From an uncultured Rickettsiales bacterium (GTDB lineage Bacteria > Pseudomonadota > Alphaproteobacteria > Rickettsiales > CANDYO01), in NCBI GenBank assembly GCA_964627795.1, contig CAZVLF010000003.1, positions 742 through 64,741 of the forward strand: a stretch of DNA of 64,000 nt. The letters run 5' to 3'. Below are positions 33,023-36,254 of this stretch, one piece after another. The translations under genes were made by a program, and so were the position numbers. The notes under the pieces were generated by a model that saw only the letters and a list, made by a program, of their open reading frames with translations, was not told where the DNA came from and searched no databases. The stretch's first letter is position 1. The number at the start of each line of letters is the position of its first letter.

Positions 33023-34087
33023 ATGGAAGCATATTACGCTGAGCGACTTTTACAAGAGTTGAAAAGCCGTTATGAAGAAGTTAAATATAATATTGGGAAA
33101 TTAGAATATCTTGATAATATTTTATCATCTTCAGAAGAATTTGATATTTCAAAAAAAGATGGGCTTTTAACAATCCTTATTTCTGATCAAGAAAATTTTA
33201 GCGATAATTCAATTGTTAAATATAATAGTTATCAAAAACTAATTGATCTTATTAATGAACAAGATAATTCAAATCAAATTCATTACATTGAAAATTATGC
33301 TCATTATGATACGAGTAAAGTAACAGGATTAATAGACTATAGCAAAATTTCATCTATAACAATTGAGCAAGTTTTAGATTATAATCCGGTTTATTATGCA
33401 AGTGATGTTGAGGGTAAACTTGAATATAGCCAAGTTGAATATATCTATTCAAGCCAAATTTTAAATTATGATGCAACTATTGCTGCAAGTAAAATTTTAG
33501 GAAAATTTGACTCCAATCAAATTAATAAAGTTGAGGTAAGCCAGTTTGTTAATAAATTTACCAGTAATGAAATAAATTATATTTACCTTAATCAAATAAA
33601 TGACTTAAGCTCAATAATTGAAGCAAGTTTGATTGAAGGGGAATTTCCCTCGTCTATTTTTGATAGTACTGTGTTGCAATCTTATATGGGTAGCGCATCA
33701 GATGTACTTGATTTTTCATTTCCTTTTGGAGCTAGAACTGACAGTCCTGGTACTTTATGGGCATGTAATAATATTGGGATTAATGCACAATCTAATAAAA
33801 AAATAGCAGGTTCAACTGATCCAAGTGAAATGATGAAAGCGATAAATCTCTGTATTATATTTGCGAATTCTATGGGCACTAAGGATTACTCTATGACATT
33901 TAGTAATAACTATTATCATATAACAACTACTACGAGTCTTAATATGGCTCTTAGCAGTGATCTTATTTCTTGTTATAACGTGCCAAAAATTGGAGCAGCA
34001 GGGGTGCCATTAGATTTTCTGGCTGATTGTTTGGCTACAATTAGTGGTAATTCACCAGATAACAGTATTTTTGCTAATTATACATAA
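33023..34087 (+). CDS. Repeat-stalk protein, paralog 1 of 3 (unknown family)
   Basis: Strong SD GGAGGAG; N-terminal RYEEVKYNIG..KYNSYQ; YSQV/SSQI/ASKI/VSQF repeats; C-terminal GTLWAC..IAGSTDPSEM..C..LADCLATISGNSP. Confidence 0.85.
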   Translation: MEAYYAERLLQELKSRYEEVKYNIGKLEYLDNILSSSEEFDISKKDGLLTILISDQENFSDNSIVKYNSYQKLIDLINEQDNSNQIHYIENYAHYDTSKVTGLIDYSKISSITIEQVLDYNPVYYASDVEGKLEYSQVEYIYSSQILNYDATIAASKILGKFDSNQINKVEVSQFVNKFTSNEINYIYLNQINDLSSIIEASLIEGEFPSSIFDSTVLQSYMGSASDVLDFSFPFGARTDSPGTLWACNNIGINAQSNKKIAGSTDPSEMMKAINLCIIFANSMGTKDYSMTFSNNYYHITTTTSLNMALSSDLISCYNVPKIGAAGVPLDFLADCLATISGNSPDNSIFANYT

Positions 34088-34102
34088 ACTTAGGAGCTTT
34101 AT

Positions 34103-35209
34103 ATGTCATTTGAAGAAGATAAAATTATAAAAGATTTAAGAAATTTATATAAAGAAGTTAAAATTAAAATTGGAAAAGTAGAAGATATTGAAAATTTTCT
34201 TTCTAACTATCCACTTCCATCTGCAAGTGAGCTTGAAGTTATAAAAGATCAACTTAGAGGAGAGCAATCCTTGCATATGGATGAAATTTTTAAATTTAAT
34301 GACTATCAAGATATTATTGACTTGCTTAATAGAAGTATTTTTGCATCTGTACTAGAAGACATTTTAAATGCAGATATTCCAACTGAAAAAATTGTGGGTC
34401 AATTTCCATCTGAGCAAATAAGCGGAATATATACATCTCAAGTTCAAGGTTTAAGTCCTGTAGTTTATGCAAGTGATATTGAAGGAATAATTAGTGCAAA
34501 TCAAATAGATTCTGTTGAAGCAAGTATTATAGAAAATTTTGATCCAACTATTTCAGCTAGTGAAATTATTGGACAATTGCAAGGCAATAACATTAATCAA
34601 ATATATGTTAGTAAAGTTAATGATTTAATCAAATCAAGCAAAGTTGAATATGTATATACAAGCCAGGTGGATAATTTGTTTCCAATTCAAGCAAGTGACA
34701 TTAATGGAAGTTTTAATTCCCAAGAAACCCAAGCTATTTTTGATTCAATGTTTAACCAACATAATTTAAAACTCACATTAGGAGGTGATTTTAATAATTA
34801 TCAATCTATTACTGGAGAACCTGGTATAATTTTTGCTTGTCATAGCCCAACTCTTCCAAATTGTAAGGAAATTAAAGGTTCTAAAGTTCCATCAGAGATG
34901 ATACAAGGATTAATCTATTGTTCATTATGGGCAGCTGCAGAGTATACTACATTATACGACAGCGATGGTATTACTTACCTTAGTAGAAATTATTATTATG
35001 CGTTGCCACGTAGTCCATCATCTGGTTCAACTGATCCTAATTCCTCAGGATCTACTACTACCATGGGTGATATTTATACTGTAAGTTTACCAGCTAACCC
35101 GAACGTTGCTGCACCTTTAGAGTTACGTGGAATGTTATTAAATGGATGTTTTGCAGTTTTAGCGGGCATAGATCCTTGTGATACAATCTTCAATTATCAA
35201 TGCGCTTAA
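34103..35209 (+). CDS. Repeat-stalk protein, paralog 2 of 3 (unknown family)
   Basis: SD AGGAG; LYKEVKIKIG..KFNDYQ; SEQI/TSQV/ASDI/ANQI/ASEI repeats; GIIFAC..IKGSKVPSEM..C..LNGCFAVLAGIDPCDTIFN. Confidence 0.85.
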   Translation: MSFEEDKIIKDLRNLYKEVKIKIGKVEDIENFLSNYPLPSASELEVIKDQLRGEQSLHMDEIFKFNDYQDIIDLLNRSIFASVLEDILNADIPTEKIVGQFPSEQISGIYTSQVQGLSPVVYASDIEGIISANQIDSVEASIIENFDPTISASEIIGQLQGNNINQIYVSKVNDLIKSSKVEYVYTSQVDNLFPIQASDINGSFNSQETQAIFDSMFNQHNLKLTLGGDFNNYQSITGEPGIIFACHSPTLPNCKEIKGSKVPSEMIQGLIYCSLWAAAEYTTLYDSDGITYLSRNYYYALPRSPSSGSTDPNSSGSTTTMGDIYTVSLPANPNVAAPLELRGMLLNGCFAVLAGIDPCDTIFNYQCA

Positions 35210-35234
35210 AAATATAATAAGAGGAGTATGAAAA

Positions 35235-36254
35235 ATGGGTTATGATTTTGCTACAAGAAAAGATCAATTTGAAAGAAGATATAAAGAAGCTGAAAATATT
35301 ATTGGAACCGACGATGAGTTAAATGAGTTTATTCAAGTAGGAACAAGCCTTGATTTAACTTCAGCTTTAGAATTAAGTTCTTATATCATTGATAATCAGC
35401 AGCAAGCTAGTGATGTTTATGTTAAATTTAATGCATATCAAGATATATTAAAAGTGTTGAAATACTATAATACTGAAGAGATGATAGATTATCTTAGATT
35501 TGCTCAAATACCTGCAAGCCGGATTGATGGAATTTTGCAGGCAAGCCAAATTGATTATATCAATGTTTCTCAAATAGATAATTTTAATCCAACTATCTAT
35601 GCTAGCGATATTTTAGGGCAATTTAAAACTGAACAGATAAATAAATTAGATGCAAGCCAAATTATTGATTACAACCCCATTATTTATGTTAGTGACATTG
35701 TGGACAAAGTGGATGCAAGCCAAATAAATAATATCTATGCAAGCCAGATAAATGGATTAATTTCAAGTGAGCAAATAGAATATCTGAAAAAAAGTGATGT
35801 TATTGATATGGATTCTTACCTTCAAGCTTCAAGAATATCTGGACAATTACAGACATCACAAATTTCAAGCACAATTACTAGTTCAATAAGCGATAATAAT
35901 TTAGGAGAAATAGATTATAGCTATTTTGTTGTAGGCCAATATGACTTGAATAATCCACCGCATAAAGCCGGGATATATGCGTGCAATACTGGGGAAGATA
36001 CCTCAGGTATAACAATAGTGCCAATATTTGGTTCTGATGATGGTGTTGAACAGCTTCAAGCGATGGTTAAGTGTAGCTTATGGGCAAATTATCGAAGTAG
36101 TTTTAATCCTACTTTATATTATACTTCAAGTAGCGATGTTTCATCGTGCTATTTTAAAACTTTTATATCAAGTGCAGATGCTTTTAATAATTGCCTTGCT
36201 ATCATTAATGGAGTAAATCCATGTAATACAGAGTTCGCAAACCTTTGCACTTAA
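35235..36254 (+). CDS. Repeat-stalk protein, paralog 3 of 3 (unknown family)
   Basis: SD GAGGAG; RYKEAENIIG..KFNAYQ; many ASQI/ASRI/ASDI repeats; GIYAC..IFGSDDGVEQ..C..FNNCLAIINGVNPCNTEFAN. Confidence 0.85.
   Translation: MGYDFATRKDQFERRYKEAENIIGTDDELNEFIQVGTSLDLTSALELSSYIIDNQQQASDVYVKFNAYQDILKVLKYYNTEEMIDYLRFAQIPASRIDGILQASQIDYINVSQIDNFNPTIYASDILGQFKTEQINKLDASQIIDYNPIIYVSDIVDKVDASQINNIYASQINGLISSEQIEYLKKSDVIDMDSYLQASRISGQLQTSQISSTITSSISDNNLGEIDYSYFVVGQYDLNNPPHKAGIYACNTGEDTSGITIVPIFGSDDGVEQLQAMVKCSLWANYRSSFNPTLYYTSSSDVSSCYFKTFISSADAFNNCLAIINGVNPCNTEFANLCT

Follow-up and report, generated by a model that had tools for sequence, protein, structure and literature searches.

A length-matched triplet of phage tail-type stalk-repeat proteins in an uncultured Rickettsiales bacterium: candidate subunits of a heterotrimeric fibre

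A 64-kb stretch of DNA from an uncultured Rickettsiales bacterium (contig CAZVLF010000003.1, positions 742 to 64,741; hereafter the window) carries three tandem paralogous genes whose products combine a predicted helical N-terminal domain, a stalk of short repeats, and a cysteine-containing C-terminal domain. We tentatively propose, at slightly less than an even chance in our estimate, that the three genes form one operon encoding the subunits of a short fibre of the phage tail-fibre type, a 1:1:1 heterotrimer used for attachment. What stands out most at the locus is that the triplet is conserved and locked in length, which makes the heterotrimer a testable hypothesis.

Results and discussion

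Three tandem genes with the same stalk

The three genes lie on the forward strand and their products align end to end with 28-32% pairwise identity, which bears out the tandem paralogs recognized in a preliminary description of the sequence.

33023-34087, + strand: paralog 1, open reading frame (ORF) of 354 amino acids (aa), ribosome-binding site (RBS) GGAGG at ~33013-33019; candidate fibre subunit gene
34103-35209, + strand: paralog 2, ORF of 368 aa, RBS AGGAG
35235-36254, + strand: paralog 3, ORF of 339 aa, RBS GAGGAG

Paralogs 1 and 2 are separated by 15 nt and paralogs 2 and 3 by 25 nt, and a strong GGAG-type RBS precedes each gene; these short gaps and strong RBSs are operon signals. Promoter and terminator scans performed no better than on shuffled sequence in the AT-rich DNA of the window, no RNA run was found to contain the locus, and no fourth copy of the gene was found in its 64 kb. 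The end coordinate originally given for the region, 35870, falls near the end of the third stalk, but the third gene extends to 36254.

The repeats had been described as centred on S-x-I, and both motif counts and unit spacings confirm and sharpen that view. The motif S[QDEKRNSLI][IV] occurs 11, 8, and 14 times in paralogs 1, 2, and 3, against 2.6-3.2 expected from shuffles, and the observed count was matched in 0, 5, and 0 of 2000 shuffles, respectively; the S-x-[IV] core is 3-5 times commoner in the paralogs than in shuffled sequences. When units were called automatically with a position matrix and dynamic programming, all three window paralogs gave the same series of spacings, 9-8-12-9-8-12-9-8-9-8-12(-9-8), i.e., 13 short units in the order ABC-ABC-AB-ABC-AB around the core motif h-A-S-Q-I-x-G.

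Unit A, 9 aa: A-S-x-I-x-G-x-h-x
Unit B, 8 aa: x-S-Q-I-x-x-I-Y
Unit C, 12 aa: x-S-Q-I-x-N-F-N-P-x-I-Y

The longer block previously seen in all three proteins (YNP/FDP/FNP..YASD[IV].G) corresponds to the junction of a 12-residue C unit with the following 9-residue A unit, and the recurring DNA word GCAAGCC, which codes for A-S-Q, is indeed present 5 times in 35514-35745 (9 times in the whole window). Tandem Repeats Finder detected no DNA-level tandem array in the stalks, indicating that the repeat is old and is seen at the protein level only. The stalk of paralog 2 aligns with the other two with gaps of at most 1 aa inside the repeats. The layout of the three proteins is as follows.

33023-33283, + strand: N-terminal helical domain of paralog 1 (aa 1-87)
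33311-33670, + strand: stalk of paralog 1 (~aa 97-216), A9-B8-C12-A-B-C-A-B-A-B-C-A(-B), spacings 9,8,12,9,8,12,9,8,9,8,12
33722-34084, + strand: C-terminal alpha/beta domain of paralog 1 (aa 234-354)
34103-34357, + strand: N-terminal helical domain of paralog 2
34382-34717, + strand: stalk of paralog 2 (~aa 94-205), unit order as in paralog 1
34796-35206, + strand: C-terminal alpha/beta domain of paralog 2
35235-35489, + strand: N-terminal helical domain of paralog 3
35514-35903, + strand: stalk of paralog 3 (~aa 94-223), the most regular copy, with 5 GCAAGCC words
35940-36251, + strand: C-terminal alpha/beta domain of paralog 3

A second triplet and the matching of stalk lengths

Three relatives, P0003, P0004, and P0007, are encoded by tandem genes on a metagenomic contig (L015, 5021-8311) in a neighbourhood that differs from that of the window and has gltX upstream; a set of three adjacent paralogous genes is thus conserved in the window and in L015. 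A whole-protein distance tree was star-like and uninformative, and domain-wise trees were used instead. The N-domain comparison scores of paralog 1 with P0003 (W_P1/P0003, 131) and of paralog 3 with P0007 (W_P3/P0007, 109), as well as the C-domain score of paralog 2 with P0004 (W_P2/P0004, 131), are above those of all within-genome pairs. Neighbour-joining (NJ) bootstrap values group paralog 3 with P0007 in the N-domain tree (79%) and paralog 2 with P0004 in the C-domain tree (91%), and no within-genome clade of the window and L015 triplets is supported in the domain-wise NJ trees. Because cross-genome domain pairs are supported and within-genome clades are not, the triplication predates the split of the two organisms. 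P0004 and P0007 are the second and third genes of the L015 triplet, and the gene order appears to be kept in both genomes; in conflict with this order, the C-domain of paralog 3 scores best with P0003.

According to the unit caller, the L015 stalks share an order of their own, ABC-AB-ABC-AB-ABC-AB, which is the same in its three paralogs. Stalk plus linker measures 146, 146, and 150 aa in the window and 158, 161, and 159 aa in L015. Stalk alignments within a genome contain gaps of 1-6 aa, and the orthologous stalk pairs across genomes each need a 13-17-aa insertion at about the same place. Among the single-copy relatives, stalk lengths are 45, 91, and 122 aa, and two of these proteins, P0047 and P0104, are close (BLOSUM62 distance of 0.13; 72% identity by tblastn) yet have stalks differing by 46 aa. 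Judging from these lengths, unit number changes readily in single-copy genes and stays equal within triplets. The idea that stalk length varies by repeat number therefore stands for the family as a whole, but not for the three window paralogs, in which it is locked. We propose a heterotrimer because unit architecture differs between the two genomes but not among the three stalks of either one: chains packed in register in a single 1:1:1 heterotrimer would need stalks that are equal in length and change together, and by analogy with known fibres the three chains possibly assemble in this manner.

A very small family built on a phage-type stalk

An exhaustive hidden Markov model (HMM) search of 1.84 billion representative proteins with the family profile returned 103 matches. 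Full-length relatives are a handful, namely P0003, P0004, and P0007, and P0047 with its closer relatives P0104 and P0105, and the domain architecture is kept at 25-30% identity across at least 4 lineages. About 95 long proteins (200-4600 aa) match the stalk only, at profile positions ~90-220 and with E values down to 5e-44; their dominant repeat spacings are 8, 9, and 17 residues. The Pfam domains found on these proteins are Peptidase_S74, Phage-tail_3, Rcc01698_C, PTR, DUF2793, CBM_4_9, and Laminin_G_3, and the PHROG families that they most often match are tail protein, tail fibre, minor tail protein, Tal, and virion structural protein. The repeat occurs, for example, in the 2575-aa "host specificity protein J" of roseophage DSS3_VP1 (QGH74587.1), and one long carrier is of the gene-transfer-agent type, with Rcc01698_C/Phage-tail_3. 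The view of the repeat as a fibre-stalk module is borne out by these carriers, which are filled with the same 9+8-residue repeat and are phage-tail-type where annotated. Since the annotated carriers are virion-related, we assign the stalk, by sequence, to a phage tail-fibre-type module, whereas the N- and C-domains are private to a very small family. The window proteins show the tandem 8-9-residue units with an x-S/A-Q/K-[IVL]-x-G core that define this stalk-repeat class; they carry none of the virion or tail domains (S74, Phage-tail_3, baseplate adaptor) and do not lie in a phage or prophage context.

Other searches point to the rarity of the family. The window paralogs have no Pfam match above the family's own cut-off and none in NCBIfam, and their single weak PHROG match (E value of 0.0006) is to a family of unknown function. 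When one paralog, the whole family, or the N- and C-domains alone served as the query in word-indexed protein searches, only the query itself or the three single-copy relatives came back. Family members were found neither in the GTDB genome scan nor in IMG/VR viral contigs, a tblastn search of paralog 3 against GenBank phages was empty, and a metagenome scan with the family yielded only a near-identical strain fragment (L016). By these searches, the locus represents a new and very rare family that re-uses the phage stalk repeat with novel end domains.

The single-copy genes show conserved synteny after terC and have housekeeping neighbours.

P0105: L002 10001-10942, single-copy, between terC and lpxK; the contig also has virB4 and fic
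P0104: single-copy, between terC and a DUF2155 gene
P0047: single-copy, precedes a DUF2155 gene and ntrX/ntrY

In P0105, a 21-aa pair of A and C units (YASQIQGLIQQSQIDDFNLNV) is present three times in tandem without a mismatch, which suggests that the stalk expanded recently. The contigs L004-L007, from four assemblies, all stop at the same distance, 180 nt, upstream of P0047, as might be expected if a repeat element lies there.

Terminal domains and structure models

Two N-terminal motifs given in the preliminary description were recovered: (R/L)Y(E/K)E...IG, in which Y17 is invariant, and K(F/Y)NxYQ, which is located at residues 66, 64, and 64 of paralogs 1, 2, and 3. The invariant residues of the N-domain are Y17, Q56, and Y70. 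In an AlphaFold2 monomer model of paralog 3 based on a 9-sequence alignment, the N-domain of ~85 aa has helices at 5-23, 27-35, 41-57, and 62-89 with a predicted local distance difference test (pLDDT) score of 60-85, the C-domain is alpha/beta with a pLDDT of 55-74, and stalk residues 86-243 are unmodelled (pLDDT of 25-35). A second monomer run on the stalk alone, with a 38-sequence alignment including phage-type repeats, gave an extended chain with zero strands and no compact fold (mean pLDDT of 55; predicted template modelling score, pTM, of 0.21), in which a 3-residue helical turn occurs, at low confidence, at each S-Q-I with exactly the 9/8/12 spacing. The beta fold first attributed to the repeats thus finds no support in the monomer models, which have no strands and only one helical turn per unit, and a monomeric beta-solenoid, which we considered as a candidate, is unlikely because the stalk model lacks strands at a pTM of 0.21 even with 38 sequences. 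An unfolded monomer stalk is compatible with a trimer and is not proof of one. A triple beta-helix, a beta-spiral, and an alpha/beta coiled coil are equally possible stalk folds. Foldseek returned nothing at E ≤ 0.001 with the full model against PDB and BFVD or with the stalk model against PDB, and neither the family profile nor a long segment of the repeat had a meaningful sequence match in PDB.

The cysteines (4, 6, and 6 in paralogs 1, 2, and 3) all lie within the C-domain, as they do throughout the family, where their number is even (4 or 6) in 9 out of 9 members and the last two are present or absent together in 8 out of 9. Because the counts are even and the last two are kept or lost together, this pattern probably reflects disulfide bonds. 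C-domains are the most divergent part of the family proteins. All members are acidic, and all lack a signal-peptide-like or membrane segment. The N-terminus of the window proteins is not hydrophobic, the maximal 12-residue Kyte-Doolittle hydropathy being ≤0.73. Of the two roles suggested earlier for the N-domain, one in assembly or anchoring is plausible; for the other, in export, no evidence was found.

A strain that lost most of genes 1 and 2

A strain 95-99% (~98%) identical to the window is present in two mine-tailings metagenomes and on contig L016. Its gene 1 enters foreign sequence after codon ~60, leaving a 65-aa product (P0014), nothing maps between ~33356 and 35065 of the window, and gene 2 is reduced to its last 24 codons, joined to window sequence that adjoins an insertion sequence (IS) transposase. 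On L016, positions 1-1345 correspond to window sequence 10470-11814, inverted and joined at 35138 inside paralog 2.

10470-11814: DDE transposase region (transposase ORF 10758-11582, + strand)

The junction at 35138 indicates an IS-linked rearrangement or deletion that removed most of paralogs 1 and 2. Gene 3 is intact, with no indels including in the stalk, and shows 11 non-synonymous and 6 synonymous differences between the strains (pN/pS of 0.44). By sequence, either gene 3 works alone in this strain or the locus is decaying.

Proposed assembly and relation to known fibres

Phage fibres with stalks of broadly this type are built as parallel trimers. In the proposed fibre, the helical N-domains would associate and nucleate or anchor the oligomer, and the stalk would fold only upon chain association, zipping together around a core of the conserved I/V positions. 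The three alpha/beta C-domains would form a distal head, probably disulfide-stabilized and presumably the binding end, through which the fibre would attach to a partner surface, most likely that of a eukaryotic host cell. We consider rather unlikely, taken as a whole, the more specific version in which the fibre is a cell-encoded obligate heterotrimer, with changes in unit number copied to all of its genes, a stalk fold not yet solved, a disulfide-bonded head, and a function in host attachment. The stalk of such a fibre would possibly be of an alpha/beta type, with one helical turn per 8-12-residue unit as in the stalk model.

The stalk repeat of phage tail proteins such as protein J of DSS3_VP1 has the same alternating 9- and 8-residue units (x-A/S-S/x-Q/K-I-x-G-x-h). 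Phage carriers are 500-4500 aa long and have tens of units together with virion-attachment, S74, lectin, or carbohydrate-binding module (CBM) domains, whereas the window proteins have 13 units in 340-370 aa, an additional 12-residue unit type, unique N- and C-domains, and housekeeping neighbours. Among cellular systems, the mosaic adhesive trimer (MAT) fibres of Bdellovibrio are likewise cell-encoded and phage-tail-fibre-like, with a modular stalk, a variable C-terminal tip, and multiple paralogs, and Bdellovibrio too lives on or in other cells. In MAT fibres, a conserved, beta-rich N-domain of ~130 aa comes after a signal peptide, and the S74 domain, which is present on some stalk-repeat carriers, is a trimer-specific chaperone (PMC10769870). 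In contrast, the window proteins have no signal peptide or S74 domain, their N-domain of ~85 aa is predicted to form four helices, and no sequence similarity to MAT fibres was detected.

A precedent for a mixed-chain fibre is provided by virophage DSLV2, in which three consecutive paralogous tail genes give rise to a 1:1:1 heterotrimeric fibre, as established by co-purification and electron microscopy (PMC12724248). Like DSLV2, the window has three adjacent paralogous genes of similar length for its putative fibre chains. The DSLV2 chains, however, are viral and resemble the T4 gp37 tip, whereas the genes described here are cellular, their stalk consists of a different repeat without a gp37 or PDB match, and the heterotrimer is proposed from sequence. 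For the stalk itself, alpha/beta coiled coils (Tcar0761, OMP100) offer a partial parallel: these are trimeric, with a ~9-residue period in which a short helix alternates with a 3-residue beta-layer of consensus [aliphatic]-A-T-K-[polar]-[DE] between heptad coiled-coil segments, and beta-layers also occur in several phage fibre and tailspike structures, e.g., HylP1, P22, and T4 (PMC4786415). The window stalk has one helical turn per unit in the low-confidence AlphaFold2 model, but it differs in its h-A-S-Q-I-x-G core, 9/8/12 spacing, conserved Gly, and lack of heptads, and neither PDB searches nor Foldseek matched it in sequence or fold to entries of the Tcar0761/OMP100 type. Trimeric autotransporter adhesins are defined by a signal peptide and a C-terminal YadA-type beta-barrel anchor; the window proteins have neither, their C-domain being alpha/beta with cysteines and without a Pfam match.

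Weighing the alternatives

Several points weigh against a heterotrimeric fibre. Its trimer state rests on analogy, the stalk has no solved-structure match by sequence or Foldseek, and only two triplet loci lie behind the length matching. Old gene conversion could explain part of that matching, the window stalks being mutual best matches (214-226, vs ≤182 for others). A test of whether core side-chain volumes compensate one another across the chains did not reach significance (P=0.45 for the window, P=0.04 for L015, P=0.08 combined). No recognizable secretion signal was found in family members, leaving surface display unexplained, as is the path by which proteins without a signal peptide would reach an oxidizing compartment or the cell surface. 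Finally, the loss of genes 1 and 2 in the mine-tailings strain indicates that the triplet can be lost, and at least there it seems to be dispensable or decaying.

Some of these points fit better with three separate homotrimeric fibres that carry different heads, share an anchor via the N-domain, and are selected for equal projection length, an explanation that we find somewhat unlikely. Homotrimers are the rule for phage fibres and phages may carry several receptor-binding proteins; moreover, relatives encoded by a single gene can only form homo-oligomers, gene 3 is the only one left intact in a naturally occurring strain, sequence divergence is greatest in the putative heads, and the lack of significant volume compensation is in line with chains that do not mix. 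This explanation nevertheless gives no direct reason for a 13-17-aa indel common to all three genes while the single-copy genes drift, and the retention of gene order and number in two distant genomes also speaks against it. Alternatively, the genes could supply the fibres for a particle of phage origin that is encoded at another place in the genome; a tailocin, an extracellular contractile injection system, a gene transfer agent, and a prophage are examples. Assembly would then be cytoplasmic, with the N-domain docking onto the particle. The missing signal peptide would be expected of virion fibres, the stalk is common to phage tail proteins including the gene-transfer-agent-type carrier of Rcc01698_C/Phage-tail_3, and in the Rhodobacter capsulatus gene transfer agent the fibre and head-spike genes are located away from the main cluster. 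We nonetheless regard such a particle as quite unlikely, given that no phage, tail, sheath, baseplate, capsid, or contractile-system gene was found in the 64-kb window or at the other family loci, where neighbours are housekeeping genes, that the family was not found in IMG/VR viral contigs or GenBank phages, and that paired cysteines are unusual for cytoplasmic assembly.

That the proteins are not fibres, and instead act as monomeric repeat proteins (beta-solenoid or largely disordered), e.g., as effectors secreted into the host cell, appears improbable. The genome does encode ankyrin-repeat proteins and, upstream of the triplet, a membrane protein with an IQ motif, and AlphaFold2 gave no confident stalk structure; yet the 38-sequence model still shows no solenoid (no strands, low pTM), hydrophobic residues recur with strict periodicity and unit order is conserved, as would be expected of a packed core, and the same repeat occurs in proteins with the trimer-specific S74 chaperone domain. 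Less probable still would be a decaying, now functionless remnant of an old prophage fibre cluster. The loss of genes 1 and 2 beside an IS element in the related strain and the only moderate constraint on gene 3 could be read in this way, but the window retains three intact ORFs, each with a strong RBS, the architecture is maintained at 25-30% identity in at least four lineages with stable single-copy synteny, and the invariant residues and the cysteine pattern are retained.

Genomic setting and host

The source contig comes from a wastewater metagenome, and the window is ordinary chromosome of 30% G+C. To the left of the triplet lie pccA and tRNA-Pro, and to the right ubiE, ubiB, a HIT protein, an M23 peptidase, comEC, a transketolase (by Pfam; the same ORF also has a weaker DXP_synthase_N match), and infC. 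An Rfam scan of the window gave two tRNAs only. UbiE is ~50% identical to its best GTDB matches (alphaproteobacterial metagenome-assembled genomes, Candidatus Tisiphia), and no family member was found in the GTDB loci matched by UbiE. Other features of the window are listed below.

785-2449, - strand: methyl-accepting chemotaxis protein (MCP)
8169-10109, - strand: ankyrin-repeat protein, 646 aa
12199-13620, - strand: large ORF without Pfam match, 473 aa
18576-19478, - strand: ankyrin-repeat protein, 300 aa
19644-21122, - strand: TLC ATP/ADP translocase (Pfam E=3e-136)
30924-32954, + strand: ORF of 676 aa, ending 68 nt before paralog 1
47677-49899, - strand: 740-aa protein, only a C-terminal ABC ATPase domain recognized
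56175-57488, - strand: large ORF without Pfam match, 437 aa
57536-59020, - strand: large ORF without Pfam match, 494 aa

The TLC ATP/ADP translocase is a hallmark of obligate intracellular energy parasites, and because the window encodes this protein together with ankyrin-repeat proteins, we infer that the host is an obligate intracellular alphaproteobacterium. The two ankyrin-repeat proteins are candidate eukaryote-directed effectors, and the MCP in a genome of the intracellular type suggests a retained motile or chemotactic stage. The 473-, 437-, and 494-aa ORFs are mutually dissimilar and may be lineage-specific effectors. The 740-aa ABC ATPase protein could be an exporter, but its gene is 12 kb away from the triplet and no link between them was shown.

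The 676-aa ORF upstream of paralog 1 may be co-transcribed with the paralogs. It has two N-terminal hydrophobic or membrane segments (~aa 20-35 and 58-78), a long coiled coil, a Lys/Asn-rich tail, and an IQ calmodulin-binding motif (22.6 bits, against a Pfam cut-off of 20.3), and it resembles an inclusion-membrane-type or host-targeted effector. No counterpart was found beside the family members in L002, L015, and L017.

Significance

Putative phage tail proteins widely carry the 9+8-residue stalk repeat, for which there is neither a Pfam model nor a solved structure. With only 340-370 aa, the window proteins are by far its smallest natural carriers, which makes them good targets for fold determination. 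If the heterotrimer is real, it would be a rare bacterial mixed-chain fibre and would offer a clear case from nature of separate genes co-evolving in length. The locus would then encode a candidate host-attachment organelle built from phage parts in uncultured intracellular alphaproteobacteria.

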